DNA of 64,000 bases from an uncultured Holophagales bacterium (GTDB lineage: Bacteria > Acidobacteriota > Thermoanaerobaculia > Multivoradales > UBA5704): positions 672,001 to 736,000 of the forward strand of contig CAWJGT010000003.1 in assembly GCA_963842525.1 (NCBI GenBank), in the 5' to 3' direction. Position numbers and translations under genes: made by a program. A model generated the notes under the pieces. It saw nothing but the letters and a program-made list of their open reading frames with translations. It had not been told where the DNA came from and made no database searches. Position 1 is the first letter of the stretch; each line of letters starts with the position of its first letter. Shown here one piece after another: positions 4,749-63,942 of the stretch.

Positions 4749-4776
4749 TCAATGAAGCCTTCGCGGAGGAAGAATC

Positions 4777-5001: not shown

Positions 5002-5017
5002 CCGATCGAGCCCTTCC

Positions 5018-5045
5018 GGCCCCTGGGAGGTTCCTCCCGGGGGCC
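5018..5045 (+). terminator. GC-rich hairpin after the precursor gene (terminator or mRNA stabiliser)
   Basis: GGCCCCTGGGAGG-TT-CCTCCCGGGGGCC; no adjacent U-tract. Confidence 0.5.
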
Positions 5046-5146
5046 TCATCCCTCCGTCGTTCGTAGCCTGCTCTCTCTCTCGTTCACTCCCGTCTGGCTT
5101 TCCCGGATTCCCAAACCGTCTTGTGATCATTGGCTCCAGGCGGCAA

Positions 5147-5224: not shown

Positions 5225-5240
5225 TGGCATCGCCATTGCA
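5225..5240 (+). promoter_or_regulatory. sigma54 -24/-12 promoter for the fulvocin-related gene
   Basis: TGGCATCGCCATTGCA, near-consensus. Confidence 0.75.
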
Positions 5241-5325: not shown

Positions 5326-6047
5326 ATGACCAGGCTGAGCCGCAACCGTGTCCGTTTCTTCGTCCCCGCCGTCGCCTTCGCAGCCGTTCTCTTGCTGGCC
5401 CAGGCCGCTCCGGCGCAGATGTGTAACGCCGAAGCCCACAACTGGGTGAAGGCGCATCGCAACGAGCTTCCCCAAATCGTATGAGGAGTTCACGCAGTTC
5501 CCTCTGAATTATCGGCAAGCCATCTATTCGGCCCTGGATGCGGGGACCCGGAGCGGGCTCTGGCAGGCGCAGCTCGAGCTCGGCGCTGCAGCGTGAGGAC
5601 CTGACCGAGGCGCAGAGGGACGTCCTCTTCGAAGCGGTCCAGCTCGCCACGCCTGAGACCTTTGCGGCCGCCAAGAACCGGCGTGAGCGGAGCCGAGCGC
5701 TCCGGCAGGTGGAAGAGTTTGACAAGAGGGCGCGTGCGGCGTTCGGCGAAAAGGCGGGTGAGCTCTTTGGACGCCTCGGCCCTGCCGATCTCGAGTTCCT
5801 GGTGGTCGACCGGCGCGAAGCGCAGTCCACGAAACAGGGGGTCCGTGGCGTGAATTCGGCCCTTCTCACCACAGCCCCTCCTCTCTGCAGTTGCAGCACC
5901 GACTCCGACTGGTGCAACAACGCCTCGCACTGCGTGTCCGGCGGCTGCACGCTGGTCCGCGATGAGTGCGGCACTTGGTGGATCTACGATTGCAACGGCC
6001 TGTGCCATGTGAACGGGACGACCGAAATCATTCAGATCCAGCAGTAG
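5326..6047 (+). CDS. Bacteriocin fulvocin C-related protein (signal peptide, helical pro-region, 8-Cys C-terminal domain); two frameshifts near 5475 and 5575
   Basis: AGGAG RBS; signal peptide MTRLSRNRVRFFVPAVAFAAVLLLAQAAPA; WVKAHRNELP motif; C-terminus CSCSTDSDWC..C..C..CGTWWIYDCNGLC matches the Cys pattern of Myxococcus fulvocin C as recalled. Confidence 0.85.
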
Positions 6048-6070
6048 CTCGCGAGGTCCCACCTCCGACG

Positions 6071-6102
6071 AAAAGGGCCCGCGGCGCTGTGCCGCGGGCC
6101 TT
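6071..6102. terminator. Intrinsic terminator-like hairpin between convergent genes
   Basis: AAAAG-GGCCCGCGGC-GCTGT-GCCGCGGGCC-TT. Confidence 0.65.
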
Positions 6103-6320
6103 CGATCGTTCAGGAATACCAGTCCCCACTAATAGCAGTTCTGCCAGAACCAGCCCGTGATCGGGGCAACGCTGCCACCAGGCAGTCGCCGCTCGCGATC
6201 ACCTCGTCGGCGCACCCGCCGACCTCTCCCGTCCCGTCGTCGACGTCATACTCTCCGTCCTCCGTCCCGAGCGAGCCGGGCCGGTGGCCCGCAGCAGGGC
6301 GGCCGAGGGGATGAAGCCGT

Positions 6321-7256
6321 TCACCGAGCGCGCAGGCCCGTCTGCCGCAACAGCCACTCCCGCTGCGCCTGGAAATATCCTGGTGCGTAACGGGTGTAGA
6401 TCCGCTCGCCGTCCTTCACCTCGAACTCGAGGATGCCGTGGTCGGCGTTCGGAAAGATTTTCAGCTCGATGGGCTTTCCCTGCTGTTGCAGCCTTTGCAG
6501 CTCGACGATGGTGGCCTCGTTCGGCGCCTCCAGGTCCTGGCCGCCGAGGAGCCAGAGCATCGGCACGTCGAGCTTCGCGAGGAGCGGTCGCGAGTCGTGG
6601 AACCAGGAATCCTTGGTGGGGAGCTTCCGCTTTATATAAGCCTTGACCAGGGCGTGCGGATACTTGAGGAAGCCTCCGCCTTCCGACCGCCCTGTGCCCC
6701 TCTTGTCGAAGACGAAGGCGGCGATGCCGTACGCTGCGAAGTGATAGGGCTCGTGGTAGTAGAGCGTCGCGGCCTCGTCGCCCGAGCCGTGGACGAGGAC
6801 CACCGCCGGGAAAGGTCCCTCGCCTTGCGGCAGCACCAGCTTGCCGAACAGCTCGATGTCGCCGCTGCGGAAGGTCGCGGCCTCCTCCCGTAGAGGCACC
6901 CTCTCGGCGCTTTTGGCCACACCGCCCACATCGGTCCATTCGAGACGGGCAGCCCTCGCCCCCTCCTTCCGGAAACGCACCCGCAGGTTGACGGGCGCAT
7001 CGGAAGCCCAGCCCGGGCCGGAGTGGAAGGAGAGGCCCTCGTCATCCGAGGGATAGAGCCGTTGGCTCCGGCCGGACTCCAGATCGCGGAAACGGAACGT
7101 GTCCTCGTCACTGTGGGCGATGGTGATCACCCGGCCGTCGTCGAAACGGTACGCACCCACGAAAGGCGAGGGCTCCAGGTCCCGCGAGCAGGCGGCCGCC
7201 AGGAGGAGGAGAGCGAAAACGGGCGCCAGGTGGCCCAGGAAGGTGCGTCGTCGCAT
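6321..7256 (-). pseudogene. Lipoprotein alpha/beta hydrolase (S9/S15-like) lacking the central nucleophile-elbow segment
   Basis: Lipobox LLLAAAC; GPFPAVVLVHGSG; FDKRGTGRSEG joined directly to the C-terminal part with GGQD and FPNADHG; no GxSxG after the DKRG motif. Confidence 0.72.
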
Positions 7257-7438: not shown

Positions 7439-8485
7439 ATGTGGGATACATGCCTGAGGCGCCTCGCCTGCGCCCTCATGCTGCTCGTCGGACCGGCCGT
7501 GAGCGAGGCGCGGGCCGCCGAGGGCCCGGCCACGCCTCCAGCGCAGCCCACGCGGGTCGCGGCGAGCTTCTTCTTCAGCACGATCGAGAACGTTGACTCG
7601 GTCAATGAGACGTTCAACGCCGATTTCTATCTGCGCCTGGAGTGGGACGATCCGCGGCTCGCGGGGCTGCCTTCCGAGCAGATCGACCGCGCCACGATGT
7701 GGCGGCCGAAGGTCGAGGTGGTCAACTCGCGCGACGTTGAGCAGCCTTGGGAGCCGTACCTCCTGTTCCCCGGGCCGGGCAAGCTCACCCTGATGAACCG
7801 CTTCCATGGGACCTTCGCCGCGCCCATGGATCTCCACGACTTCCCGTTCGACCACCAGGTGCTCCCCGTCGAGGTCGAGTCGCTGCAATACACGGCGCGC
7901 CAGGTGGCCTTCCACTATCCCGGGCACGGGCGCCAGGAGCAGGGCTGGAGCACGATGCTGAAGCAGGAGGAGCTGCTGGGGAGCGGTGTACGGCTGCCTG
8001 AATGGAAGATCGAGGCGGTCCAGGTGCGCGAGCTCGAAAAGTACTACAACTTCATGGACGCCAGATATTCGCGGTACCGCATCGAAATCCTGGTCTCCCG
8101 CCGGTCCGGGTTCTACGTCTGGAAGGTCATCGTCATCGAGGCGATGATCCTGGTGCTGTCCTGGGTCATCTTCCTGATGGATGCGGGCGAGATCGGCAAC
8201 CGTTCGGCCGTCTCCGTCACGCTCCTCCTCGCGACGGTGGCGTTCAGCTACGTGGTCAGCGGAATCACTCCGCGGGTCTCCTACCTGACCCTGTTGGACT
8301 GGTTCCTGCTGGGGTGCTTCGGCCTGATTTTCCTGTCGATGCTGGAGACGGTTGTCGTCTACCTGCTGCACCGGCGGGGAACGAGGGCCGCCGTGGCCGC
8401 GCGGATCGACCGCTGGTCGTTGGCGTTGTTCCCCGTCCTCTTCCTGCTGGTCAATGCCCTGCTCTGGGTGCCGGTGCTGGTGTGA
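7439..8485 (+). CDS. Prokaryotic pentameric ligand-gated ion channel (GLIC/ELIC-like)
   Basis: Signal peptide; FNADFYLRLEWDDPRL, WRPKVEVVN, Pro-loop DLHDFPFD, pre-M1 Arg (VSRRSGFY); four TM helices; M2-M3 PRVSYLT. Confidence 0.92.
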   Translation: MWDTCLRRLACALMLLVGPAVSEARAAEGPATPPAQPTRVAASFFFSTIENVDSVNETFNADFYLRLEWDDPRLAGLPSEQIDRATMWRPKVEVVNSRDVEQPWEPYLLFPGPGKLTLMNRFHGTFAAPMDLHDFPFDHQVLPVEVESLQYTARQVAFHYPGHGRQEQGWSTMLKQEELLGSGVRLPEWKIEAVQVRELEKYYNFMDARYSRYRIEILVSRRSGFYVWKVIVIEAMILVLSWVIFLMDAGEIGNRSAVSVTLLLATVAFSYVVSGITPRVSYLTLLDWFLLGCFGLIFLSMLETVVVYLLHRRGTRAAVAARIDRWSLALFPVLFLLVNALLWVPVLV

Positions 8486-8830: not shown

Positions 8831-11050
8831 TTACCGTTGTGGGCGACGTGTCGGGGTGCCTCCCTGGACGGCGTCGCCGGTGACCACCAGGGCGAAGGGC
8901 TGCGGCCCGTTCGGCACGTTGAACGAATGGATGGTCACGATGTAGACGCCGGTCGCCGGGCTGTTGAGCAGCACCTGCTCCAGGGTGTTCCTGCGGTCGG
9001 CGGCGCCGCCGGTGGCCGAGGTGCCGCCGGCGAAGACGTTGCCGCGCCACAGGGTGCCGGTGGGGCCGTTCACCTCCAGGTCGAGGTCGTTGTTGAGGTT
9101 GGGGTTGGCCGCCGGGGTCGACGGGAAGTCGGTCCACGCCAGGGTGGCCTTGAATGGCTCGGCGCTGCTGTTGACGCTGAAGATCCAGCTCTGGGTCTGC
9201 GCGCTTCTGGTGAAGGCGGGGGCGTCGTCCTCGACCCAGAGCTTGCGGGTCTGGCCGGTGAAGAAGAGGGCGTTCTCCAGCAGCACGCGGCCCCAGCCCT
9301 GGCAGTTGGCGGGGATCGCGGTCGTGCCGGTCATGTTGGCGGCCGAATTGACCAGCGTGGCCTTGAGCAGGGCGGCGGACGGGGTGAAGCCGTTGGCGCT
9401 GTTCTCGCTGCCCGTGGGGTACCAGCCTTCGGTGTAGTACTGGCGGATTAGGGCCGTCAGGCCGGCGACGCCGGGCGAGGCCATGCTGGTGCCCGAGCTG
9501 AACTTGGTGCCGCAGTTGTTCGTGGTGACGCTCAGGTCGTTGTTCGCCGAAACGATGCTCGACCCGGGGATGGTGATGTCGGGCTTGATGCGGCCGTCGA
9601 GCGTCGGGCCGCAACTGCTGAACGAGGACATGGAGTTGGCGCTCGTGCCGCGCAGTGTGGAGCCTACCGAGACTCCGTTCTTGTTCGTGGAGGGGCTGCC
9701 GACCGTGCCGGTCCCCGGCCCGGCATTTCCGGCCGCGAAGAAGATCAGGAAGTCCGGGTATTTCCACATGAACTCGTCGACGTCCTGGCTGCCGGCCGAG
9801 TAGTTGTTCTGCACCGCGGCGTTCTCGTTGTCGCCCCAGGAGTTGGTGTGCAGGCGGACGCCCTGGTTGTAGGCCTGCAGGAAGACCGGATTCAGGTCGA
9901 CCACCGGGCAGCCGATACCGGGCAGGTCGCCGCAGTTGTCCACCTGGAAACCGGCGTCCTGGATGACCAGCTTGGCGCCCGGTGCCATGCCGTCGGCCGT
10001 GTCGTGGACCAGCGGGGTGGCGAAGTTGTCGCCGGCCGCGGTGCCGGCCACGTGCGAGCCGTGGTCCTGCGTGTCCCACTCGGTGCCCGCGATTCCGCCG
10101 TTGCAGTCGTTCGACCAGAGGAAGTCGACGGCGATCACTTTGCGCTGGTTGGTGTCGACGACGGTTCCGCCGTTGCAGGCATTGGTGGGCGGCAGGCCGC
10201 GGGCGGGGTCGCGGAACCAGCACATGTCGGCGTCGATGCCGGTATCGACGATGCCGATGACCTGCCCTTCGCCGAAGATCCCCTGGCTGAAGATCGGCGT
10301 GGTCTGGCCGCCGGAGAGGCCTGACTGGCCGACCCAGATGGTGGTGTCGTTCGCCAGCGTCCGCCGCCCCTCGACCTCGATCCAGAAGACGTCGCGCAGG
10401 CGGGCGAGGCTGTCGCGGTGCTGCGCGATCTCCGAAGGGGCCAGGAGGAGCCGGATGCGGGAGAAGCGGGGGCCGCTGGCCTCACCCACGGACGGCCGGA
10501 GGCCGAGGTCGCGGACCTGCTGGACCACCTCGCCGAGGTCTGCATCCGGGAAGACGTGGAGCAGGACCGGGCGCGCCTTGCCCGAGATGAGCCCGCGCGC
10601 CGGGTCCGCCGCCTCGGCGGCCTTGAACGCGGCGGCAGCCCGCGAGATCTTGTAAAAAGGATGATAGGGGCCGGACCAGGTCGCGCCCATCCCGGCCAGC
10701 CGCTTGCCGGTGAGCGAGCCCGCCGGCACCTTCACCAGGTAGGCGTAGTAGGGGAGGTAGGTATAGACCCGCAGGCTCGCCGCCCGCAGCGCCTGCTCCT
10801 GCCGGGCCGTGATCGGGCCGGGGAACTTGACCAGCACGATTTCGTCCTCGACCGTGTCGCCCGGACCGACGCGCAGCGCCTCCGGGATCGCCGGCCGCGG
10901 CCGGCTCGTGTCGATGACGGTCGATTCAAGGGAGATCACAGCCGCCGCCCGCGCTTCCAGGCTCCGCAGCTCCTGCCCCCGGAGGACCGGAGAGAAGAGG
11001 GTGGCAACGCACAGCACCGACAGACTCAGCGCCTGCTTTGAATTGGACAT
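8831..11050 (-). CDS. S8 subtilase (KP-43-like), copy 1; C-terminal domain largely deleted
   Basis: Signal peptide; triad IVDTG / HGSHVAG / GTSMA; FAAGN; QGWGRV; highly similar to 11150..13900; residual last codons at 8783-8820. Confidence 0.92.
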   Translation of the reverse strand: MSNSKQALSLSVLCVATLFSPVLRGQELRSLEARAAAVISLESTVIDTSRPRPAIPEALRVGPGDTVEDEIVLVKFPGPITARQEQALRAASLRVYTYLPYYAYLVKVPAGSLTGKRLAGMGATWSGPYHPFYKISRAAAAFKAAEAADPARGLISGKARPVLLHVFPDADLGEVVQQVRDLGLRPSVGEASGPRFSRIRLLLAPSEIAQHRDSLARLRDVFWIEVEGRRTLANDTTIWVGQSGLSGGQTTPIFSQGIFGEGQVIGIVDTGIDADMCWFRDPARGLPPTNACNGGTVVDTNQRKVIAVDFLWSNDCNGGIAGTEWDTQDHGSHVAGTAAGDNFATPLVHDTADGMAPGAKLVIQDAGFQVDNCGDLPGIGCPVVDLNPVFLQAYNQGVRLHTNSWGDNENAAVQNNYSAGSQDVDEFMWKYPDFLIFFAAGNAGPGTGTVGSPSTNKNGVSVGSTLRGTSANSMSSFSSCGPTLDGRIKPDITIPGSSIVSANNDLSVTTNNCGTKFSSGTSMASPGVAGLTALIRQYYTEGWYPTGSENSANGFTPSAALLKATLVNSAANMTGTTAIPANCQGWGRVLLENALFFTGQTRKLWVEDDAPAFTRSAQTQSWIFSVNSSAEPFKATLAWTDFPSTPAANPNLNNDLDLEVNGPTGTLWRGNVFAGGTSATGGAADRRNTLEQVLLNSPATGVYIVTIHSFNVPNGPQPFALVVTGDAVQGGTPTRRPQR

Positions 11051-11149
11051 CCTGTCCTCCATACTGCCCGGCGGACCATGCGGTCTTCATCACCACCAAC
11101 CATATCGCGATGGCCTACCGGTATGGCGATGCCGCGCTGGCCTCTGTGC

Positions 11150-13900
11150 TCAATTCTGCTGCACGATCCTCACGTCATCCACTGCTGCTTCGACCAGGCT
11201 GGCCGTGCTCGCGTCCGCGGCCTCGATGCGGATGCGCACGGTCTGGCCCGCGAAGGCGGTGATGTTGGCCGAGCCGGTGGTCCAGACGGCGTCCACGTCG
11301 GTGGCCGCGCCCAGCCTTTCGAGCACGGTCGAGGTGGTTGTCCCGACCACCCGGATGCGCAGGAAGTCGGCGCTGGACGAGTTATTGCCGTGGGCGAGGT
11401 AGTAGGAGAAGGACAGGGTGAGCGTACCGGTCGCGGGCAGGGTGATGGCCGGCGATTGGATGGTGGTCGTGCCGCCGTCGATGTCGTTGGCCCCGGCTGA
11501 CGAGCCCGCGAGGCGGGCGGTCACCAGGTCGTTGACGCCGCTCACGGTGGTGCCAAGCTGTTTGGGGCCGCTCGAATCGGTCGCCTGCGGATCGCCCCGC
11601 TCCCAGAGCCCGAGGGTCGCCGTATCGGTCCCCAAGGGATTGACTGTCCAGCCCAGGCTTGTTTCGAAGTTGTCGAAGAAGACGGTGACAGGCGGCGGTG
11701 GCGGGGTGCCTCCCTGGACGGCGTCGCCGGTGACCACCAGCGCAAAGGGCTGCGGCCCGCTCGGCACGTTGAACGAACGGATGGTCACCGTATAGACGCC
11801 GGTCGCCGGGCTGTTGAGCAGTACCTGCTCCAGGGTGTTTCTGCGGTCGGCGGTGCCGCCGGTGGCCGAGGCGCCGCCGGTGAAGACGTTGCCGCGCCAG
11901 AGGGTGCCGGTGGGGCCGGTCACTTCCAGGTCGAGGTCGTTGTTGAGGTTGGGATTGGCTGCCGGCGTCGACGGGAAGTCGGTCCACGCCAGGGTGGCCT
12001 TGAACGGCTCGGTGCTGCTGCTCACGCTGAACGTCCAGCTCTGTGTCTGCGCGCTGGCGGTGAAGGCGGGCGCGTCGTCCTTGGCCCAGAGCTTGCGCGT
12101 CTGGCCGGTGAAGAAGAGGGCGTTCTCCAGCAGTACCCGGCCCCAGCCCTGGCAGTTGGCCGGGATCGCGGTCGTGCCGGTCATGTTGGCGGCCGAGTTG
12201 ATCAAGGTGGCTTTCAGCAGGGCGGCGGACGGGGTGAAGCCGTTGGCGCTGTTCTCGCTCCCCGTGGGATACCAGCCTTCGGTGTAGTACTGGCGGATCA
12301 GCGCCGTCAGGCCGGCGGCGCCGGGGGAGGCCATGCTGGTCCCCGAGCTGGACTTGGTGCCGCAGTTGTTCGTCGTGACGTTCAGGTCGTTGTTCGCCGA
12401 GACGATGCTGGAGCCGGGGACGGTGACGTCGGGCTTGATGCGGCCGTCGAGCGTCGGGCCGCAACTGCTGAACGAGGACATGGAATTGGCGCTCGTACCG
12501 AGCAGGGTGGAGCCCACCGAGACGCCGTTCTTGGCCGTGGAGGGGCTCCCGACCGTGCCGGTCCCCGGACCGGCGTTGCCGGCCGCGAAGAAGATCAGGA
12601 AGTCCTTGTGGTTCCACATGAACTCGTCGACGTCCTGGCTGCCGGCCGAGTAGTTGTTCTGCACCGCGGCGTTTTCGTTGTCGCCCCAGGAATTGGTGTG
12701 CAGGCGGGCGCCCTGCGTGTAGGCCTGCTGGAAGATCGGGTTCAGGTCGACCACGGGGCAGCCGATGCCGGGCAGGTCGCCGCAGTTGTCGACTTGATAG
12801 CCGGCGTCCTGGATGACCAGCTTCGCGCCCGGCGCCATGCCGTCCGCCGTGTCGTGGACCAGCGGGGTGGCGAAGTTGTCGCCGGCCGCGGTGCCGGCCA
12901 CGTGGGAGCCGTGGTCCTGCGTGTCCCACTCGGTGCTCGCGATCCCGCCGCTGCACTCGCTCGACCAGAGGAAGTCGACGGCGATCACCTTGCGCTGGTT
13001 GGTGTCGACCACCGTCCCGCCATTGCAGGCGTTGGTGGGCGGCAGGCCGCGGGCCGGGTCGCGGAACCAGCACATATCGGCGTCGATGCCGGTGTCGATC
13101 ACGCCGATGGTCTGCCCTTCGCCGAAGATCCCCTGGCTGAAGATCGGCGTGGTCTGGCCGCCCGAAAGGCCCGACTGGCCGACCCAGACGGTGGTGTCGT
13201 TCGCCAGCGTCCGCCGGCCCTCGACCTCGATCCAGAAGACGTCGCGCAGGCGGGCGAGGTCGTCGCGGTGCCGTGCGATCTCCGGAGGGGTGAGGAGGAG
13301 CCGGATGCGGGAGAAGCGGGAGCCGCGGGCCTTGCCCAGGGATGCCCGGAGGCCGAGGTCGCGGACCTGCTGCACCACCTCGCCGAGGTCTGCGTCCGGG
13401 AAGACGTGGAGCAGGACCGGACGCGCCTTGCCCGCGGCGAGCTCGCGCGCCGGGTCCGCCGCCTCGGTAGCCTCGAATGCCGCGGCGGCGCGGGAGATTT
13501 TGTAAAAAGGATGGTAGGGGCCGGACCAGGCCGCGCCCATCCCGGCCAGCCGCTTCCCCGTGAGCGATCCTGCCGGCACCTTCACCAGGTAGGCGTAGTA
13601 GGGGAGATAGGTATAGACCCGCAGGCTCGCCGCCCGCAGCGCCCGTTCCTGCCGGGCCGTGATCGGGCCGGGGAACTTGACCAGCACGACCTCGTCCTCG
13701 ACGGTGTCTCCCGGGCCGACGCGCAGCGCCTCCGGGATGGCCGGCTGCGGCCGGCTCGTGTCGATGACGGTTGATTCAAGAGAAATCACCACCGCCGCCC
13801 GTGCCTCCAGGCTCCGCAGCTCCTGGCCCCGGAGAGCCGGAGAGAGGAGGGTGGCAATGCACAGCAACAACAGATTCGACACCTGCTTTGAATTGGGCAT
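11150..13900 (-). CDS. S8 subtilase (KP-43-like), copy 2, with an extra C-terminal beta-sandwich (MAM-like) domain
   Basis: GGAGG RBS before MPNSKQ; triad VIDTG / HGSHVAG / GTSMA; Pro linker then FFDNFE...VEAAVDDVRI domain. Confidence 0.94.
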   Translation of the reverse strand: MPNSKQVSNLLLLCIATLLSPALRGQELRSLEARAAVVISLESTVIDTSRPQPAIPEALRVGPGDTVEDEVVLVKFPGPITARQERALRAASLRVYTYLPYYAYLVKVPAGSLTGKRLAGMGAAWSGPYHPFYKISRAAAAFEATEAADPARELAAGKARPVLLHVFPDADLGEVVQQVRDLGLRASLGKARGSRFSRIRLLLTPPEIARHRDDLARLRDVFWIEVEGRRTLANDTTVWVGQSGLSGGQTTPIFSQGIFGEGQTIGVIDTGIDADMCWFRDPARGLPPTNACNGGTVVDTNQRKVIAVDFLWSSECSGGIASTEWDTQDHGSHVAGTAAGDNFATPLVHDTADGMAPGAKLVIQDAGYQVDNCGDLPGIGCPVVDLNPIFQQAYTQGARLHTNSWGDNENAAVQNNYSAGSQDVDEFMWNHKDFLIFFAAGNAGPGTGTVGSPSTAKNGVSVGSTLLGTSANSMSSFSSCGPTLDGRIKPDVTVPGSSIVSANNDLNVTTNNCGTKSSSGTSMASPGAAGLTALIRQYYTEGWYPTGSENSANGFTPSAALLKATLINSAANMTGTTAIPANCQGWGRVLLENALFFTGQTRKLWAKDDAPAFTASAQTQSWTFSVSSSTEPFKATLAWTDFPSTPAANPNLNNDLDLEVTGPTGTLWRGNVFTGGASATGGTADRRNTLEQVLLNSPATGVYTVTIRSFNVPSGPQPFALVVTGDAVQGGTPPPPPVTVFFDNFETSLGWTVNPLGTDTATLGLWERGDPQATDSSGPKQLGTTVSGVNDLVTARLAGSSAGANDIDGGTTTIQSPAITLPATGTLTLSFSYYLAHGNNSSSADFLRIRVVGTTTSTVLERLGAATDVDAVWTTGSANITAFAGQTVRIRIEAADASTASLVEAAVDDVRIVQQN

Positions 13901-13993
13901 CCTGTCCTCCAGGGATGGAAGAAGAGCTGCGCGCTCCCTGTAAAAAGGGGTGCCCGAGGGCCGGTTGCGCGCGCCGGTCGCCTGTAGGACAGT

Positions 13994-14009
13994 TGGCCTC
14001 GTCTTTGCA
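13994..14009 (+). promoter_or_regulatory. sigma54 -24/-12 promoter
   Basis: TGGCCTCGTCTTTGCA (GG-N10-GC), about 30 bp upstream of a small ORF with AAGGAGG RBS. Confidence 0.6.
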
Positions 14010-14038
14010 GAAAGATCCTCCCGAAGGAGGATGGAGAC

Positions 14039-14173
14039 GTGACACGAGAAGCCCAACCCCTGAAGACTCTCCCGAGACCGTTGCTTCCCATCCTCCTCTA
14101 CCTGCTGATTTCCCTGGCCGGGACTCCGGATCTCTCCCGCCTCACGGCCCTGGTCTCCACCCTCATTCCCTGA
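14039..14173 (+). CDS. Putative 44-aa hydrophobic small protein (not in the ORF track)
   Basis: AAGGAGG 8 nt before GTG; MTREAQPLKTLPRPLLPILLYLLISLAGTPDLSRLTALVSTLIP-stop. Confidence 0.55.
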   Translation: MTREAQPLKTLPRPLLPILLYLLISLAGTPDLSRLTALVSTLIP

Positions 14174-14206
14174 ACGAACGCGCAAGCACTGCGTCGTCGA
14201 GCCGCG

Positions 14207-35927: not shown

Positions 35928-37067
35928 ATGAAGAAGATCCTGGTGGTGGACGACGAGCCCGCGGTGCTCTTCGCCCTCTCGGAAGCCCTCACCGACAAGC
36001 GGCGCGGTCTCAAGGTGGTCACCGCCCGCGACGGCCGGGAGGCGATGGCAATCCTGGACTCCGACCGCATCCACCTGGTGGTTACGGACCTGCGGATGCC
36101 CGAGGTGGACGGCTTCGAGCTGCTCGCCCACCTGCGCCGCACGCGGCCCGAGCTGCCGGTGATCGTCATGACGGCGCTCGGCTCGGCCGAGACCTCCGGC
36201 CGGCTCGAGCCGGAGGGCGTGCTGGAATGCCTCAGCAAGCCGTTCGACATCGCCGTCCTGCAGCAGAAGATCCACGAAAAGCTGGCGCAGCGGGTCACCG
36301 GCCGCGTCGAGAACATCAGCCTCGCCTCGTTCCTCCAGCTCCTGGAGATGGAGCGCAAGACCTGCACGCTGAGCATCACCGCGGCCGAGCGCAGCGGCCG
36401 GCTCTACTTCCGGAGCGGCAAGCTGGTCGGCGCCGAGACCGCCGACCTCGCGGCCTCGGAGGCGGCCCTGGAGGTCGTCACCTGGGAGCACGCGGACATC
36501 GAGATCTCGGAGGCCTGCCCCGTGGAGGGACCGCCCCTGCCAGGCGGCCTGCCGTTCCTCCTCCTCGAGGCGATGCGGCTCAAGGACGAACGGTTGCGGG
36601 CCGGCGGGGCCGACGACGAGGCCGAGATCGACGCCCTGCTCTTCGCGCCGATCCCCGCCGCGGTGGCGCCGCCCGCGGCCCATCCCTCCGATCCTTCCGG
36701 GCAGGTCCGCGAGGCCCTCGACCGGGGGAGGGGGATCGAAGGGGCCCTCGCCACCCTGCTCGCCTCGACCGCGGGCACCGTCCTGGCCGCCGCCATCGGT
36801 ACGAAGTCGGTGGACCTGGAGGGGGCCGCCGCGGCCGCCGCGGCGCTACTGCGCCGCAAGGAGGAGATCGAGGACAGACTGGGCCGGCGCGAAACGGTCG
36901 AGGAGCTGCTGCTCGCCACGGCCCGGCGCTGGTACCTGGTGCGCCCCGTCGGCGCGGCGGAGGACCGGTTCCTGCTGCTGATCCTCGACCGCCGGAAGGC
37001 CGACCTCGCCCTCGCCCAGGCCGAGCTGGCCGCCATTGCCCGCGACCTGTTGGAGCCGGAGCGGTGA
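35928..37067 (+). CDS. Response regulator receiver + DUF4388/PATAN-like + Roadblock/LC7-like domain protein
   Basis: ILVVDDE, TDLRMP, SKPF; ISLASFLQLLEMERKTCTL..GRLYFRSG; C-terminal VEELLL...YLVRP...FLLLILDR...LALA. Confidence 0.85.
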   Translation: MKKILVVDDEPAVLFALSEALTDKRRGLKVVTARDGREAMAILDSDRIHLVVTDLRMPEVDGFELLAHLRRTRPELPVIVMTALGSAETSGRLEPEGVLECLSKPFDIAVLQQKIHEKLAQRVTGRVENISLASFLQLLEMERKTCTLSITAAERSGRLYFRSGKLVGAETADLAASEAALEVVTWEHADIEISEACPVEGPPLPGGLPFLLLEAMRLKDERLRAGGADDEAEIDALLFAPIPAAVAPPAAHPSDPSGQVREALDRGRGIEGALATLLASTAGTVLAAAIGTKSVDLEGAAAAAAALLRRKEEIEDRLGRRETVEELLLATARRWYLVRPVGAAEDRFLLLILDRRKADLALAQAELAAIARDLLEPER

Positions 37068-37073
37068 ACGGAC

Positions 37074-37141
37074 AAAAAAAGAGGGACGGTCACTCCGTCC
37101 CTGAGGAGGCGCCGCCATTGAGGCGGTCGTTGTCGCCAACC
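37074..37141 (-). ncRNA. Candidate sigma54-dependent sRNA (~68 nt)
   Basis: Begins 12 nt after a -12 box; GUUG-GCGA-CAAC, CCGCC-UCAAU-GGCGG, unpaired CCUCCU, terminator AGGGACGG-AGUGA-CCGUCCCU-C-U7. Confidence 0.68.
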
Positions 37142-37151
37142 AAGTGTCTTT

Positions 37152-37167
37152 CGCAAGGCGGATGCCA
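37152..37167 (-). promoter_or_regulatory. sigma54 -24/-12 promoter
   Basis: Minus strand TGGCATCCGCCTTGCG. Confidence 0.72.
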
Positions 37168-37309
37168 GCCCCGCCGCCGCCGAAGAAATTTCGGCAAGCC
37201 GTTCTGATTCAGAGAGTTGCGAGACGCGGCGCGAATTCGAGGCCGGCGGGAATGGTCCGGCCTTCGGGTACGTTTGCCATAATGTCGAGGTGAAAAGACC
37301 ATAGAGATC

Positions 37310-38836
<1,527 letters not shown>

Positions 38837-40542: not shown

Positions 40543-42078
40543 ATGACCGAGCACACGGACATTCCGCTCTCCTACGGCCAGCGCGCCCTCTGGTTCGTCC
40601 AGCGGCTGGCGCCGGATGCGACCGCCTACAACGTGAGCCTGCCGGCGCGGGCCCGCGGCCTCGACACTGCCGCTTTCCGCACGGCGTGGCAGGCGCTGAC
40701 TGACCGCCACCCGGCCCTGCGCACGACCTTCCCCGCTCCGGCCGGGCAGGCAGTCGGGAGGGTCTTTCCGCGCCTGGAGGTCGACTTTGCGGAGGAGGAT
40801 GCCTCGGGCTGGAGCGCGGCGACGGTCGAGCAACGGCTCGGGGACGAGGCGCACCGCCCGTTCGACCTCCAGCAGGCACCGGCCCTGCGCCTGCGGATCT
40901 TCCACCTCGCCGGAGGGGAAACCCTGTCGCTCCTCTCCCTGCATCATCTGCGCATCGATCTCTCGTCGCTCGCCGTCCTGGTCGACGAGCTCGGGGCCGC
41001 CTATGCAGCGGCGCTCGCAGGAGCACCTCTCGTGCTGCCGGCCCCCCCGGCCCCTCCGGGACCTTCCGCGACCTATGAGGAGTTCGTCCACTGGCAGGCG
41101 GAGACGCTCGCCGGAGCCCCCGGCGAGGAGCTGTGGTCCTTCTGGCGTGGGCGCCTGGCCGGGTCGCCTCCCGCGCTCGCGCTGCCGGCGGACCGTCCCC
41201 GGCCGCGCGTTCAGACCTTCCGCGGCGGCGCGCGGGAGGTCGTTTTGGGACCAGGGCTGACCCGGCCGCTCAAGGCGCTGGCCGCGTCCGAGGGGGTGAG
41301 CCTGAGCACGCTCCTCCTCGCCGCGTTCCAGGCCCTCCTGCACCGCTATAGCGGGCAGCAGGACGTCCTGGTCGGCTGCCCGGTCCCGGGTCGCGGGCTG
41401 CCTGATTTCCGGGACGTCGTGGGTTACTTCGTCAATACCGTCGTGGTCCGCGGTGACTTCGCGGGCCGGCCCGGGTTCCGCGAGGTGCTGCGGCGCGTAC
41501 ATCGCCGGGTGGAGGAGGCCCTGGAGCACCAGGACTATCCGTTCCCGCTGCTCGTCGAGCGCCTGCGTCCGCCGCGGGACCCGGGGTGTCCGCCGCTGTT
41601 CCAGGTTCTGTACGCGCTCTACCAGGGCGAAGAGGAGCGGGTGAGCCGGCTCCTCATGGGACAGGCGGGCGACGCGCTGGACCTCGGTGGCGGCCTCGTG
41701 CTCGAGCCCTGGCCGCTGCCCGGCCGGTCGGCGATGCTCGACCTGGCGCTGCTGATGAGCGACGCGGGGGACCGGATCGCGGCGAGCTTCCAGTACAATG
41801 CGGACCTCTTCGAGGCCGCTACGGTCGCCCGCCTGGCGAGCGACTTCGAGGCGGTGCTGGCGGCCGTCCTGGACGATCCCGACCGGGCGGTCGCGAGCCT
41901 GCCGGCCTCGTTGGGCGAGGCGTGCCGGAGCGCCCCGCCGCAGTCACCGCAATTACCGCAGGTCCCGCCGCCGCCCGCGTTCCCCGCCGAAAGGGCCGAC
42001 GAGAGGGCCGAGACCCGTCGCGCTCTTCTCGAGCGCCAGAAGCGCGCGCGCAGCGCCGTATCCAGGAGCCGTCCATGA
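40543..42078 (+). CDS. Stand-alone NRPS condensation-domain protein
   Basis: LSYGQRALW, RHPALRT, HHLRIDLSS, VGYFVN, HQDYPF; basic C-terminal tail. Confidence 0.92.
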   Translation: MTEHTDIPLSYGQRALWFVQRLAPDATAYNVSLPARARGLDTAAFRTAWQALTDRHPALRTTFPAPAGQAVGRVFPRLEVDFAEEDASGWSAATVEQRLGDEAHRPFDLQQAPALRLRIFHLAGGETLSLLSLHHLRIDLSSLAVLVDELGAAYAAALAGAPLVLPAPPAPPGPSATYEEFVHWQAETLAGAPGEELWSFWRGRLAGSPPALALPADRPRPRVQTFRGGAREVVLGPGLTRPLKALAASEGVSLSTLLLAAFQALLHRYSGQQDVLVGCPVPGRGLPDFRDVVGYFVNTVVVRGDFAGRPGFREVLRRVHRRVEEALEHQDYPFPLLVERLRPPRDPGCPPLFQVLYALYQGEEERVSRLLMGQAGDALDLGGGLVLEPWPLPGRSAMLDLALLMSDAGDRIAASFQYNADLFEAATVARLASDFEAVLAAVLDDPDRAVASLPASLGEACRSAPPQSPQLPQVPPPPAFPAERADERAETRRALLERQKRARSAVSRSRP

Positions 42079-45000
42079 GCCATCCTCCCGCCGCCGAGCT
42101 CGATTCCCTGGAGAATGCCATCGCCGTCCTCGGCCTGGCCGGGCGCTTCCCGCAGGCTCGCACCCTCGACGAGCTCTGGGAGAACCTGCGCAACGGCGTC
42201 GAGTCGATCCGCGTCCTGACCGAACCGGAGCTGCTCGCCGCGGGCGTCCTCGCCTCGACCCTGCGCGACCCGAGCTACGTCCGCGCCGCGGGGGTGGTCG
42301 AGGGGATCGACCTCTTCGACGCTCCCTTCTTCGGCTTCAGCGCCCGCGAGGCGGCGTTCCTCGACCCACAGCAACGGCTGTTCCTGGAGTGCGCCTGGGA
42401 GGCCCTGGAGTCGGCCGGCTACGACGCGCTGCGCATCCCGGGCCCGGTGGGCGTCTACGGCGGCACCAGCGCGAACAGCTATTACCTCTTCTACCTCTTT
42501 TCGCGCGCCGACATGCTCAACTCGCCGTCGGCCGGCCAGAGCTTCCTGGGCGGGGACAAGGACTTCCTCTGCACCCGGACCAGCTACAAGCTGGGCCTGC
42601 GGGGTCCCAGTCTCGGCGTCCAGACCGCCTGCTCGACCTCGCTCGTCGCGGTCCACCTGGCCTGCCAGAGCCTGCTCAATGGCGAGTGCGACATGGCGAT
42701 CGCGGGCGGCGCCTCGCTCAGGGTCCCGCAGACGACCGGCTATTTCTGGCAGCCCGGCGGCATCCTGGCGGCGGACGGCCATTGCCGCGCCTTCGACGCC
42801 GAGGCCGGCGGCTCGGTCCCGGGCAGCGGCGTAGGCGTTGTGGTCCTGAAGCGCCTGGAGGACGCTCTCGCCGACGGCGACACGGTGCGGGCGGTGATCC
42901 GCGGCTCGGCGATCAACAACGACGGAGCCCTGCGGGTCGGCTTCACCGCACCCAGTGTCGAAGGGCAGGCCGCTGTCATCGCCGAGGCCCTAGCTCTCGC
43001 CCGGGTCGACCCGGCGACCATCGGCTACGTCGAGGCCCACGGCAGCGGCACTCCCTTGGGCGATCCGATCGAGATGGCTGCGCTCACCCGCGCCTTCGAG
43101 AGCGACCGCACGCGCCGTGGCGCCTGCGCCGTGGGCTCGATCAAGACCAACCTCGGCCACCTGGACGCGGCGGCAGGCATCACCGGCCTGATCAAGGCCG
43201 TTCTGGCGCTGGAGCATCGCGAGATCCCACCCAGCCTGCATTTCCGGACGCCGAACCCGAACGCCGGCTTCGCGGACAGCCCGTTCTACGTCAACACCCA
43301 GCTCCAGGAGTGGACGACGGACGGCGCTCCGCGGCGGGCGGGCGTCAGCTCGTTCGGCATGGGCGGGACGAACGCGCACGTGGTCCTGGAAGAGGCCCCG
43401 GAGCCCGAGCCTTCAGGGGTGTCCTCCGGGGCGCGCCCCTGGCAGCTCCTCCTCCTCTCGGCGGTGACCCGCACGGCCCTGGAGGCCGCCACGGACAACC
43501 TGACCGCGCACCTGGAGAAGCACTCCGGGCAGCCTTTCGCGGATGTCGCGTACACGCTCCAGGCCGGCCGCCGCGTCTTCGCCTATCGGCGGGCCCTTGT
43601 CTGTAGGGACGGAGAGGATACGCGACGGGCCCTGGCGGAGCGCGATCCCGCGCGGCTGCTGGAGGGCTTCGAGGAGCGGACGGACCGCACCGTCGCCTTC
43701 CTTCTCCCTGGCCTTGGGGATCAGTACGACGGCATGGCGCGCGGCCTCTACGAGGGCGAGCCCGTCTTCCGCGACGAGGTGGACCGATGTTGCGAGATCC
43801 TGCGGCCGATCCTGGGGATGGATCTGCGGGAGGTGCTGTTCGCGGGAGGGGAGGAGGGAGACGGGGACGGTCCCGACCTCCGTGCCCTCCTCGGCCGGAG
43901 GAAGGAAACCGGCCGCTCCGACCGCACCGCGATCGCTCAGCCGGCCCTGTTCGTCGTCGAGGTCGCCCTGGCGCGGCTCCTCCGGGAGTGGGGGATCGAG
44001 CCGCGGGCTCTCCTCGGCTACAGCCTGGGCGAGTACGTGGCCGCCCACCTCGCGGGTGTGATGACCCTGGAAGACGCCCTGCGGGTCGTGGCACTTCGCG
44101 CGCGGCTGATCGAGGAGCTGCCCGGCCGGCGCCATGCTGGCCGTGCCGCTGTCCGAGGCCGAGGCCGCCGGTCTGCTCGGCGAGGAGCTGTCCATCGCCG
44201 CGGTGAACGGCCCGGAGCTGTGCGTGGTGGCCGGTCCGGTCGACGCGGTGGCGACGCTGGAGCGGCAGCTCGGGGAGCGCGGCTTGTCCGTACGGCGCCT
44301 CGCGACCTCGCACGCCTTCCACTCGAAGATGATGACACCGGTGGCCGCTGCCTTCGAGCGGGTGCTGCGGGAGGTCGACCTCCGCGCCCCTGAGATGCCC
44401 TACATCTCGAATGTGACCGGCACCTGGATCACGCCGGCCGAGGCCACCGATCCGGCGTACTGGGTGCGCCACCTTCTGGAGCCGGTGCGCTTCGGCGCCG
44501 GGCTGGCGGAGCTGGGGCGCGAGGCCGGGCGGGTGCTGCTGGAAGTCGGCCCCGGCCAGAGCCTGAGCAGCCTGTCTCTCCAGAGGGTGTTTCGAGATCC
44601 TCCCCCTGGGAGCGCCGACGCTCCCAGGGAGGAGGGACGGACCGCTCTTCCGACCCTGCGGCCGTCCTGGGAGCGGCGGCCGGACCAAGCCTTCCTCTTG
44701 GGCACCCTCGGCCGCCTCTGGCTCGCGGGTGTTTCGGTCGACTGGGCCGGCTTCGCGAAGGAGGAACGCCGGCGGCGCGTTCCGCTGCCGACCTATCCCT
44801 TCGAGCGGAAACGGTACTGGATTGAGAGTCCGGTCTCCGAGGTATCCGAGGCCGTGGGACCTCACCCCCGGCCCCTCTCCCATCTCCCTTCCACCCGCCC
44901 GCCGGGAGAGGGGGGAGCGCTGACCGACAGCTCCCAGGCTTTCCAAGGTCTTTCTCCCCTCTCCCGGGGAGGGGAAGGGTGGGAGATGGGAGAGGGGCCG

Positions 45001-48000
45001 GGGGTGAGGTCCATCGCCACCACCACCCACGGCCGTCCCGGGCTCGCCACGCCCTACGTCGCTCCCACGACTCCGACCGAGGCGGCGTTGGCCGAGGTCT
45101 GGCAGGAGCTGCTGGGTGTCGCGCCGGTGGGCATCCATGACAGCTTTTTCGACCTCGGCGGCCACTCGCTGATGGCGTCGCAGCTCGTGGCCCGCCTCTC
45201 CGCGCGCTTCGGCGCCGAGGTGCCGCTCGTTGCGCTCTTCGAGGCCCCGACCGTCGCGGCGCTCGCCGTGCGGCTTCACGGCGCGCCGGAGGCTCAGCTC
45301 GAGACAGCCCTGCCGCGCCGGCCTCAGCGGGATCGCGCTCCGCTCTCCTTCGCCCAGCAGCGCCTCTGGTTCGTGCACCACCTCGCGCCCGAGAGCAGCG
45401 CCTACAACAACCCGGTCGCGATGCGCCTGCGCGGCCCGCTCGATCTTGCGGCGCTGACCGAAGCCCTGGCCGAGATCGAGCGGCGGCACGAGGTCCTGCG
45501 CACCCGCTTCCCCGTCGAGGACGGCGAGCCGGTGCAGCTCATCGAGGACCCGAGGCCGGTCGAGCTTCAGCGGATCGACCTCTCGCATCTGGCAGGGGAG
45601 GAAGGCGAGGCCGCGGCCCGGAGCGCCCTCTGGAGCTTCGTCGAGCCTCCCTTCGACCTCGCCCGCCGGCCGCCCGTGCGCCACCTGCTGGCCCGGCTTA
45701 CGGAGGAGGACCCGGAAGAAGACCACCTCTTCGTCACCGCCATGCACCACATCCTGTGGGACGAGTGGTCGCAGGGGATCTTCGTGCGCGAGCTCGCCAC
45801 CCTCTACGAGGCGTTCCGCGACGGCCAACCCTCGCCGCTCCCCGAGCTGCCGATCCAGTACGGCGACTGGGCCCTGTGGCAGCGCGAGCACCTGCAAGGT
45901 GAGGTCCTGGAAGAGCACCTGTCGTATTGGCGGGCGCGGCTCGACGGCGCGCCGCGCCTGCTCGCCCTGCCCACCGACCGGCCGCGCCCGCCGGTCCAGA
46001 CCTTCCGCGGCGCGACCCGCGCCTTCGCCGTCTCCGAGGAGCTGCAGCGGAGCCTCCATGCAGTCTCCCAACGACAGGGCTCCACCCTCTTCATGACCCT
46101 CCTGGCGACGTTCCAGGCCCTCCTCGGCCGCTATGCGGGCCAGGAGGACGTGGTCGTCAGCACCGGCACCGGCGGTCGCGACCGGGTCGAGGCCGAGAGT
46201 CTGATCGGCTGTTTCATCAACATCCTCCTGCTGCGCGCCGACCTCGGCGGCGGCGTCTCGTTCGACGAGCTCCTGGCGCGCACCCGCGAGAGCACCCTCG
46301 GCGCTTTCGCCCACCAGGACGTCCCCTTCGAGCTGCTGGTCGACGCTCTGCAGATCGAACGCGACCCGAGCACCACGCCGTTCGCCCAGGCCATGCTCGT
46401 CCTGCTCAACGTGCCGCCCGTGGACCTGGAGCTGCGCGGATTGGAGGTCAAGGGGGTGAGGATCGACCGCCAGGTCTCGCAATTCGACCTTGTCCTCTAC
46501 CTCACGGAAGAAGGGGGCCGGCTCGGTGGCCAGCTCGAATACAACGTCGACCTCTTCGACGAGGCCACGGTCGACCGCCTGCTCGGTCACTACCGCAACC
46601 TGATGGAGCGGGCCGCCGCCGACCCTGGCCGCCGGATCGCGGAGATCTCGTTGCTCTCCGAGGCCGAGCGGCGGCAGGCGGTCGAGGAGTGGAACGCCAC
46701 CGCTGAGGCCTTCCCGCGCGATGCCTGCCTGCACGAGCTGTTCGACGCCTGGGCGGACAAACAGCCCGAGGCCACGGGGCTGATCTTCGGCGACGAGCCC
46801 TTCACCTACGCCGAGCTGAGCCGCCGGGCGAACCGCCTGGCCCACCACCTGATGAGGCTCGGCGTCCGCCGGGGCGACCGCGTGGGCGTCTCCCTGGAGC
46901 ACGCGCCCGAGGTGGTGGTCTCCCTGCTCGCCGTGCTCAAGGCGGGCGGCGCCTACATGCCGCTCGACCCCGGGTACCCGCAGGAGCGGCTCGCCGCCAT
47001 GCTGGAGGAAGCCGGTCTGAGCGCCCTCCTCACGCAGAAACGCCTGGCACCTCGTTTTTCTGACGTCCCGACGGTGCTCGTTGATCAGGATTTCGCCGGC
47101 GCAGGAGACGAAAGCCCGCGGACCGGCGTGGGGCCGGAGGACATGGTCTACATGATCTTCACCTCCGGATCGACCGGCCGTCCCAAGGGCGTGCTGCTCG
47201 ACCATCGCGGCCGGGTCAACAACTTCACCGATTTCAACCGCCGCTTCCGCATCGGACCGGGCGACGCCGTGCTCGCCCTTTCGTCGCTGAGCTTCGACAT
47301 GTCGGCCTACGATGTCCTGGGCACCCTCGCGGGAGGCGGCACGATCGTCCTGCCGCGCCTCGAGGAGCTGCGGGAGCCGTCGCGCTGGGCCGGACTGATG
47401 ACCCGCCATCGGGTCACGATCTGGCACTCCGTCCCGGCCATGCTGGAGATGCTGGTGGACAGCCTGGAGCCGCGGCCCGAGGCGGCGCCGCGCTCCCTCC
47501 GCCTGGTCCTCCTGGGCGGCGACTGGATCCCGGTGACGCTGCCGGACCGCCTGCGCGCGCTCGTTCCGGAAGCCGAGGTGATCAGCCTGGGCGGCGCCAC
47601 CGAGGTCTCGATGGATTCGACGATCTTTTCCGTCAGCGCGATCGATCCGGCCTGGAAGAGCATTCCCTACGGCGTGCCCATGGCCAACCAACTCGCCTAC
47701 ATTCTTGGGCCGGACGGCGGCCCCAACCCGGCCGGCGTGGCGGGCGAGCTCTGCCTGGGCGGCGTGGGGGTCGGCGCCGGCTATTTCGGCCGGCCGGAGC
47801 TGACGGCGGCGAAATTCGTGCCCGATCCGTTCGGGTCGGGCGACCGCCTCTACCGCACGGGCGACCTGGCGCGCTGGCGGTCGGACGGCGTCCTGGAGCT
47901 GCTCGGCCGCATGGACTTCCAGGTCAAGGTCCGCGGCTTCCGCATCGAGCCCGGGGAGATCGTGAGCGCCCTGCGCCAGCACCCGGCCGTGGACGACGTC

Positions 48001-48569
48001 GTGGTCCTGGCGCGGGAGGACCAGCCGGGCGCGAAACGTCTGGTGGCCTACCTGGTGCCGGCCCCGGGAGTTGCGGTCGACGTGGACGAGGTGCGGGAGC
48101 TGGCGCGGCGCCTGCTGCCGGGCTACATGGTCCCGTCGGCGTTCGTGGTGATGGAGACCCTGCCGCTCACGCCCAACCGCAAGCTGGACCGCAAGGCCCT
48201 GCCGGTGCCGGAAGAAGCCGCGACCGAGCGCGAGCTGGTGCCGCCGCGCACCGCCCTGGAGCAGGTCCTGGCGGGGATCTGGCGCGACGTCCTGCGGGTT
48301 CCTGACGTGGGCGCCTTCGATCACTTCTTCGACCTGGGCGGGCATTCGCTGGCAGCCACCCGGGTGGTGACGCAGATCCAGGAGGTCTTCCTGCTGGAGG
48401 TGCCCCTGCGCCTGCTGTTCGAGTCGCCGGTGCTCGCCGAGCTGGCGGCCCGTCTGGAGGACCTGGCGGCGCGCGAGGGCGTGGACGCCGCCGGCATCGC
48501 CGAGGTGCTGGCGGACATCCAGGAGCTGCCCGAGGAGGAGGTGCATGCGCTGCTCGCGGAGGAGCCCGG

Positions 48570-48573
<4 letters not shown>
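42075..48573 (+). CDS. Hybrid PKS-NRPS: KS-AT-ACP-C-A-PCP; frameshift near 44125
   Basis: QTACSTS, EAHGSGT, NLGH (KS); GYSLGE, HAFHS (AT); GGHSL twice; HHILWDEWS (C); [23 protein letters not shown] (A). Confidence 0.95.
44599..44635. repeat. In-frame REP-like hairpin inside the AT domain coding region
   Basis: CCCTGGGAGCG-CCGA-CGCTCCCAGGG. Confidence 0.65.
44857..45012. repeat. In-frame palindromic element (CCCTCTCCC family) in the AT-ACP linker
   Basis: Perfect 32-bp terminal inverted repeats (44857-44888 / 44981-45012); 156 bp = 52 codons. Confidence 0.9.
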
Positions 48574-58929
<10,356 letters not shown>

Positions 58930-63520: not shown

Positions 63521-63942
63521 AACTGAGTGGGGAGCAATCCCTTCTGACCGCCGTGCAGAAGTCAGCAGAGGGCATAGTATATTAGAGGCGAGAGCCTCGA
63601 AGGTCCTGAACGGTGCCCCGGTCAGGACCGGGGTGAATGAGAGGAGAAGTCGCTTCGTGAGGAACCACGGCATTGCATCTGTCAAGCAGCGAAAGCTGCC
63701 TCTGGCTTGTCCGGAGGATGAAGCCGGGGTTAGGTCACGGGGGAGGACACTCCGGTTTGTCCCACGAACCGGCTGGAGCGGGAGTTGGAGCCATCCAATC
63801 CAACATCAGTTCCCGCGACGGCAGTTCGCCGAAGGGCGAATGGCAAGAGGGGCCGACCGAATCAGCCGAACCGCCGTGTACGTGACCCGTATGCACGGTG
63901 GTGTGGGAGGAGGGGGTCCGTGAGGGCCCCCCCTATCCCGAT
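63521..63942 (+). mobile_element. 5'-truncated, ORF-less group II intron (class IIC-like)
   Basis: GCAGAAGTCAGCAGAGGGCATAGTA; DV GAACCGCCGTGTACGTGACCCGTATGCACGGTGGTGT with CGC triad; DVI ending CCCCCTATCCCGAT; no RT motifs in DIV. Confidence 0.88.

Follow-up and report, generated by a model that had tools for sequence, protein, structure and literature searches.

A putative sigma-54-dependent small RNA family of Thermoanaerobaculia encoded divergently from a GAF-domain activator gene

Sigma-54 promoters are recognized by GG at -24 and GC at -12, separated by ten bases, with a consensus near TGGCAC-N5-TTGC, and an enhancer about 130 to 150 bp upstream is at a usual distance for them. Two of the small RNAs (sRNAs) most relevant here, Qrr and Pxr, have families in Rfam. 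Excerpts of PMC8043402 place V. harveyi qrr1 on the strand opposite luxO and 151 bp upstream of it; sites for phosphorylated LuxO and sigma-54 lie upstream. For Myxococcus and other myxobacteria, excerpts of PMC5568312 describe Pxr as having a predicted sigma-54 promoter and as always lying beside one sigma-54 activator gene, nla19; its stem-loops end in a terminator, and the RNA was defined largely by conservation across relatives. The unpaired CCUCCUCCC seeds of a third sRNA, NfeR1, silence mRNAs by occluding their ribosome-binding sites, according to part of PMC10746234. Our search of full-text literature, whose coverage stops short of subscription journals, returned no sigma-54-dependent sRNA in Acidobacteria and no small RNAs of Thermoanaerobaculia. 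Soils and sediments harbor abundant Acidobacteriota, many of which, like the genomes considered here, are known as metagenome assemblies alone; to our knowledge, their post-transcriptional regulation has been little studied.

The window (the whole 64-kb stretch of DNA that was analyzed) contains a minus-strand locus for which a first-pass annotation, made from the letters alone, had proposed a sigma-54-dependent sRNA gene arranged like LuxO-Qrr1 of Vibrionaceae. Table 1 lists its features. The comparison proved apt as an analogy, not as homology: in both systems the sRNA gene is divergent from a sigma-54 activator gene. Qrr RNAs, however, have four stem-loops (PMC12101431, in part), whereas two are predicted here; LuxO carries a phosphorylated receiver as its sensor, whereas the Acidobacteriota activator has a GAF domain and, at 259.1 bits, falls short of the 800-bit cut-off of the LuxO equivalog; and Qrr/LuxO belong to Gammaproteobacteria, while the present RNA comes from Acidobacteriota and was found as a single copy. 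Within 36500-37800 the Qrr model had no match even at E values up to 10, and at gathering score it matched neither the window nor any of seven homologous loci. Membership of the Qrr family was rejected on these grounds, together with the GAF-type activator and the missed LuxO cut-off. The Nla19-Pxr pair shares an sRNA that has a predicted sigma-54 promoter and is tied to one activator gene, as well as stem-loops ending in a terminator, but pxr lies downstream of nla19, which encodes a response regulator, and Pxr has 108 nt and three stem-loops (both from excerpts of PMC5568312), whereas the RNA predicted here is divergent from a GAF gene, with about 68 nt and two. Moreover, Pxr is linked to development, and no such link is known for the Acidobacteriota RNA. 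Membership of the Pxr family was likewise rejected, since 36500-37800, the window, and the seven loci gave no match to its model and the gene is divergent, not downstream. NfeR1 and the rhizobial alpha-r14 sRNAs resemble the predicted RNA in an unpaired CCUCCUC(CC) complementary to ribosome-binding sites. Nonetheless, NfeR1 bears three identical copies of CCUCCUCCC, spread over three hairpins, as opposed to one 7-nt motif between two hairpins, and its transcription, which LsrB activates and NtrC represses, does not start from a sigma-54 promoter next to an activator gene, unlike that predicted for the Acidobacteriota RNA; no sequence or Rfam relationship between NfeR1 or alpha-r14 and the Acidobacteriota RNA was found.

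Table 1. Features of the predicted sRNA locus and its neighbors, in window coordinates
Feature	Position	Strand	Basis or remark
Sigma-54-type -24/-12 promoter, TGGCAT-CCGCC-TTGC	37167-37153	-	Sequence reading; TGGCAT 37167-37162, TTGC 37156-37153
Predicted RNA start	~37141	-	Predicted position
5' tail GGUUGGCGACAA, predicted single-stranded	37130-37141	-	
GC hairpin: CG(A)CCGCC, loop UCAAU, GGCGGCG	37129-37110	-	Bulged A
Candidate seed CCUCCUC, predicted unpaired	37109-37103	-	Complements GAGGAGG Shine-Dalgarno
Rho-independent terminator stem-loop AGGGACGG/AGUGA/CCGUCCCU, 8-bp stem	37102-37082	-	Terminator scan
Terminator tail: C, then U7	U7 37080-37074	-	Terminator scan
Candidate enhancer (UAS) site 1, GGTACGTTTGCC, GGT-N6-RCC dyad	37267-37278	none	Alignment
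Candidate enhancer (UAS) site 2, GGTGAAAAGACC	37289-37300	none	Alignment
Sigma-54 activator gene, GAF + Sigma54_activat + AAA_lid_14 + HTH_8, 508 aa	37310-38836	+	Pfam
Response-regulator gene with DUF4388 domain	ends 37067	+	Convergent with predicted RNA gene

Several elements of the proposed gene were recovered directly. The near-consensus -24/-12 box reads TGGCAT-N5-TTGC on the minus strand, in agreement with the sigma-54 pattern; the GC-rich second hairpin is present; and the gene for a GAF-AAA-Fis protein, expected about 140 bp away on the other strand, is a GAF/AAA+/HTH_8 gene whose start codon lies 143 bp from the T of the -24 element and 169 bp from the predicted RNA start. That start was set by convention 12 nt past the C of the -12 GC, which gives an RNA of about 68 nt to the end of the U-run. 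A terminator scan confirmed the terminator with its seven U residues, and 37102-37074 (-) was the sole terminator-like site within 36000-38500. Folding of a 73-nt RNA yielded a minimum free energy of -30.9 kcal/mol (z = -2.81), equaled by 1 of 200 shuffles.

The promoter match by itself is less telling. Five matches to TGGCAYN5TTGCW with at most one mismatch occur in the window, where 1.63 would be expected, a count of five being attained in 2 of 100 shuffles; taken alone, the match is not significant within the window. This lone, nonsignificant match, together with the position of the hairpin 15 nt past the plus-strand stop codon at 37067, would fit a locus with no functional RNA, at which the hairpin merely terminates the plus-strand response-regulator gene and the -24/-12 box has arisen by chance. 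However, the U-run lies on the minus strand, while in the plus-strand direction UGAGGAGG, with no U-run, comes after the hairpin, and the scan detected no plus-strand terminator. Additionally, the whole unit is kept beside the activator gene where the plus-strand neighbor differs, and its core is conserved beyond four-fold degenerate sites (see below). We therefore consider the absence of a functional RNA highly improbable, and the caveat attached to the original proposal, namely, a hairpin acting only as a plus-strand terminator with no conservation, is contradicted by the strand of the U-run and by the conserved unit. Elsewhere in the window, a second, perfect sigma-54-type box, TGGCATCGCCATTGCA, lies at 5225-5240 (+); it is followed, about 85 nt on, by a 52-aa ORF (5327-5484, +) that has a good ribosome-binding site and a signal-peptide-like start. 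No rpoN was found among the scanned ORFs of the 64-kb window.

Relatives of the locus were collected by searching the activator protein against species-representative genomes, which yielded 80 loci. Nine of these, L001 to L009, carry full-length activator orthologues (63-78% identity), all in Thermoanaerobaculia or Acidobacteriota metagenome-assembled genomes; the other 71, from many phyla, are at most 49% identical and mostly match the AAA+ part only. A promoter-RNA-terminator unit divergent from the activator gene was present in seven of the nine orthologous loci (L001 to L004 and L007 to L009, with a more divergent form of the RNA in L009). Counting the window, the unit thus accompanies an orthologous GAF activator in 8 of 10 genomes, and this comparative evidence supports the original suggestion of an undescribed sRNA tied to the adjacent activator. 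The eight RNA sequences represent one class, and all relatives are metagenome-assembled genomes. Each unit consists of a GG-N10-GC/TTGC box, a short tail, a CCGCC/GGCGG hairpin, GCGCCUCCUC, and a terminator with U5-7. The GG-N10-GC box with TTGC stands at an equal distance from the activator gene in 9 of the 10 orthologous loci, L005 being the exception; measured to the activator start codon, the -24 box is 144-167 bp away in the seven RNA-bearing relatives, as against 143 bp in the window. Promoter positions G5, G6, and C7 and the CTTGC block are invariant across alignment A1. Because its position is conserved in related genomes, the promoter/RNA unit goes beyond what chance would produce. 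The two orthologous loci that lack the RNA differ from each other. L006, the most divergent of the orthologous loci (63% identity), has a promoter box at the equivalent place followed by a 232-aa signal-peptide ORF (box and ORF at 3067-3829, -), while in L005 (78% identity) neither promoter nor RNA was found in the 207 nt upstream of the activator gene, at which point the contig ends.

We then built a covariance model from the eight RNA sequences and searched 680,874 nt, comprising the window and the 80 loci. The model matched just its eight training sequences, at 47.6-89.7 bits (high scores being expected of a training set), and the next-best match scored 16.7 bits (E = 0.34). By this measure the RNA occurs as one copy per carrying locus, and none was found beside the distant activator relatives in the 71 loci. 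A plain pattern search matched 6 of the 80 loci, with L004 missed through one inserted G.

On the far side of the RNA, the flanking gene changes from locus to locus. The convergent response-regulator gene of the window is replaced by a different convergent gene in L002, L003, L004, and L007; in L001 a protein-kinase-like ORF lies on the same strand about 95 nt past the terminator, and in L009 a gene for a 969-aa signal-peptide protein begins on the same strand 25 nt past it. Since this flank varies, the unit travels with the activator and not with its other neighbor. The same-strand genes of L001 and L009, and the equivalent promoter of L006, which directly drives its signal-peptide ORF, would fit another explanation: the element could be a cis-acting leader or attenuator, whose promoter drives a downstream protein gene with the hairpins and terminator gating read-through, that gene having been lost or moved in most genomes. 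Yet in the window, L002, L003, L004, and L007 the next gene is convergent, leaving nothing to read into, and the RNA is kept in every locus with a different downstream gene. L001, L006, and L009 have same-strand genes that are mutually unrelated and lack relatives in the other loci, and a common downstream protein was rejected because the L006 and L009 products have no relatives in the window or the other loci. Nor was an alternative anti-terminator pairing evident in the folds. A leader function is thus quite unlikely, although read-through into the downstream gene is possible in L009 and L001, given the short distances there.

All eight RNAs share a common fold plan: a mostly free 5' tail (absent from L009), a GC hairpin with a bulged A, a C-rich linker, and a terminator. 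Within the RNA core (alignment columns 16-50), pairwise identity averaged 80%, whereas four-fold degenerate sites in the activator gene averaged 58% over the same 28 pairs, the values for L004 being lowered by an apparent frameshift in its activator gene. GGCGCCTC is invariant in all eight. The tail reads GGCGACAACGA in the window and L001, UCGUCACGACGA in L002, L003, L007, and L008, and the related UCUACGACGA in L004, and its mean unpaired probability ranges from 0.51 to 0.86 across the seven tail-bearing loci. A GNRA-capped hairpin that had been drawn in this region (GUUG-GCGA-CAAC, 37140-37129) is writable but missing from both the minimum-free-energy and centroid folds; it is impossible in L002, L003, L004, L007, and L008 and hence not conserved. 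The CCUCCU stretch, described at the outset as unpaired, is present as part of CCUCCUC, with variants CCUCCUA in L003 and CCUCUGC in L009. Its mean unpaired probability is 0.71-0.92 in 7 of the 8 RNAs but only 0.46 in that of the window, in which the assumed 5' GG is available as a pairing partner. No reading frame common to the eight RNAs was found, and in those of L003, L007, and L008 none of the triplets ATG, GTG, and TTG occurs, which bears out the earlier judgment that no plausible ORF is present.

Covariation among homologues, which had been named as a check, was observed in part. In the GC hairpin, RNAalifold showed seven pairs that are invariant or change on one side only, with no covariation in the stem among the eight sequences; the loop is variable in both sequence and length (3-5 nt). 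The terminator is found in all eight; its stem comprises 8-13 pairs, after which come C and U5-7, and two stem positions show compensatory changes: position 1 is A-U, replaced by G-C in L003 and L009 and by G-U in L007, and position 7 is G-C, replaced by A-U in L001 and L009. These terminator pairs were tabulated from individual folds, not from a structure-consistent alignment, and the upper stem is variable.

Rfam searches detected no family at gathering score in the window or the seven homologous loci, as the expectation of an undescribed RNA implied. Together with the changing far-side gene and the missing ORF, this result favors the reading as an sRNA gene. The closest candidate, M23 RNA (RF03006), was rejected: it scored 22.2 bits (E = 0.17) against a gathering threshold of 41.2, and the match spans 37147-37201, i.e., the promoter and upstream DNA, not the RNA. 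Scr3202 (17.4 bits) and BjrC80 (14.2 bits) appeared in permissive searches as sub-threshold noise. Apart from this locus, a group II intron domain (D1-D4-1, 41.4 bits) was found in the window at 63524-63605 (+), and L003 carries D1-D4-3 at 135.6 bits with Intron_gpII just downstream of its activator gene (5847-6493, +).

The activator protein has the hallmarks of its class. Its Sigma54_activat domain matched Pfam at E = 4.6e-66, a GAFTGA loop is visible in the translation, and the N-terminal domain is GAF, not Response_reg. Its score was under every NCBIfam equivalog cut-off, including those of AtoC, NifA, and NorR, so no specific functional name was retained. Its relatives in PDB are the generic AAA+ domains of NtrC, ZraR, NifA, and FleQ, and the GAF activator family comprises at least 120 protein clusters with generic names alone. 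The L004 gene shows an apparent frame change near 4400 (+), where tblastx segments 4145-4405 and 4398-5087 lie in different frames, and its single-frame translation is 45-50% identical; either an assembly error or a pseudogene might account for this. A few kilobases from the activator gene, the window holds a non-ribosomal peptide synthetase cluster (40543-54677, +) with Condensation, AMP-binding, PP-binding, and Acyl_transf_1 domains.

In an alignment of the intergenic regions, two blocks stand just before the activator start codon, each of the form GG(T/C)-N6-(A/G)CC and usually followed by ATA. Pairs spaced 20-23 bp apart occur in 9 of 10 loci, missing in L005 alone, where the promoter is also missing. 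In eight loci the two dyads begin at distances of about 100 and 122 bp from the -24 box; in L006 these distances are 81 and 101 bp. In the window, the dyad centers lie about 131 and 153 bp upstream of the predicted RNA start, and candidate site 2 lies 10 bp before the activator start codon. As background, such a pair occurs in 0.28% of 93-nt windows across all the collected sequence, a generous comparison given that the motif was defined post hoc. Strong inverted repeats were rejected as enhancer sites, since a repeat tool found none common to the eight intergenic regions. From their sequence and placement, the GGT-N6-ACC dyads look like a putative enhancer of the sigma-54 promoter. They also overlap the ribosome-binding region of the activator gene, and they may additionally mediate autorepression of the activator or instead be a feature of its mRNA. 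The GGT-N6-ACC-ATA blocks as a whole (37267-37304, with equivalents in L001 to L004 and L006 to L009) might form a structured or protein-bound part of the activator 5' untranslated region.

Base-pairing sRNAs usually have an unpaired C-rich stretch beside the terminator. The predicted RNA has this layout, but searches for its partners gave little. With activator leaders (-70 to +40) in eight loci, duplex energies were no better than those of shuffled RNAs: depending on the locus, 50-180 of 200 shuffles were at least as good, by a method that ignores accessibility. Feedback pairing with the activator's own leader was therefore dropped as unsupported. Exact complements of at least 9 nt in the 64-kb window of one genome revealed no convincing target. 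One Shine-Dalgarno-like site with an ATG, near 4960 (-), was rejected as antisense to a plus-strand peptide ORF (4777-5001), and the remaining sites fall inside coding regions. Furthermore, a 7-nt seed would match any strong Shine-Dalgarno sequence and so has little specificity.

The window has other notable features as well. The peptide ORF belongs to a possible peptide-maturation cluster at 3239-5001 (+), with ORF functions inferred by eye: a radical SAM gene (3239-4300), a cysteine-rich ORF (4257-4748), and the 74-aa ORF at 4777-5001 with a Pro-rich tail. An identical 39-nt context, CCGGCCGCCGCCATCTCCCGCGCCATCGCGAGCATCCGG, occurs at about 18582 (-) and about 23824 (-), some 5 kb apart, which suggests a short duplicated segment. 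At 8831-14185 (-), two large genes for subtilases of 743 and 1011 aa lie side by side; they share near-identical short stretches, e.g., near 9825 and 12675, and are probably tandem paralogues. The product of 7439-8485 (+), which carries Neur_chan_LBD and Neur_chan_memb domains, is a bacterial homologue of pentameric ligand-gated ion channels.

The lack of a target in the 64-kb window and the activator leaders, the sequence conservation of the hairpin stem and of the base of the terminator stem, as for a protein-recognition surface, and the overlap of the candidate dyads with the activator's own 5' region would all suit an RNA that is real but does not pair through CCUCCUC. Such an RNA might bind or sequester a protein, or the transcription unit might act chiefly as an autoregulatory device for the divergent activator, by promoter competition or occupancy of shared sites. 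However, repeated protein-binding motifs such as multiple GGA loops are not seen, the target search was confined to 64 kb of one genome, and an unpaired C-rich stretch beside the terminator is the usual layout of base-pairing sRNAs, in line with what PMC10746234 describes for NfeR1. We regard a non-pairing role as unlikely.

Altogether, the reading that we prefer, with a probability of roughly 0.65, is that 37167-37074 (-) is a self-contained gene for a trans-acting, sigma-54-dependent sRNA of about 68 nt, operating with the activator as follows. Sigma-54 RNA polymerase would bind the TGGCAT-N5-TTGC box, and the divergent activator would sense some ligand via its GAF domain, occupy the two GGT-N6-ACC dyads, and open the promoter in an ATP-driven manner. 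The activator probably represses itself too, because the dyads cover its 5' untranslated and ribosome-binding region. Transcription would stop at the terminator at 37102-37074, releasing an RNA in which the 5' tail and CCUCCUC are free, with the GC hairpin between them and the terminator hairpin at the end. One of these free stretches, either CCUCCUC or the 5' tail, would then most likely pair with the ribosome-binding sites of mRNAs from elsewhere in the genome and block their translation. By analogy with known seeds, we infer an anti-Shine-Dalgarno action for CCUCCUC, and the conserved 5' tail could equally serve as the seed in its place. What the sequences show is the elements themselves, their conservation and linkage to the activator gene, and the lack of an ORF and of a known RNA family; the transcript, its 5' end, its dependence on the activator, the enhancer sites, the action in trans, and the anti-Shine-Dalgarno mode are all inferred. 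We would class the element as a so far undescribed sRNA family of Thermoanaerobaculia, i.e., a putative new family within a known class, that of sigma-54-dependent sRNAs encoded beside their activators.

A broader interpretation, which we find doubtful, is that activator, enhancer, and promoter form a portable cassette with a swapped output: an sRNA in most Thermoanaerobaculia lineages, a secreted protein in L006, and a degenerate RNA before a large secreted-protein gene in L009. The sRNA would then be a global, 16S-mimicking damper of translation. If so, CCUCCUC would mimic the 3' end of 16S rRNA and damp translation of a wide range of mRNAs with strong Shine-Dalgarno sequences upon a signal sensed by the GAF domain, making the RNA a global rather than a target-specific regulator.

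As an sRNA gene of the preferred kind, the locus would constitute a compact, testable module that unites a sensor-activator, candidate enhancer sites, a sigma-54 promoter, and a predicted sRNA. The divergent arrangement of an activator gene and its own sRNA, as in LuxO-Qrr1 of Vibrio, would then have had an independent origin in a distant phylum and with a different sensor domain. The predicted sRNA may also offer a handle on what the widespread, uncharacterized family of GAF activators controls.
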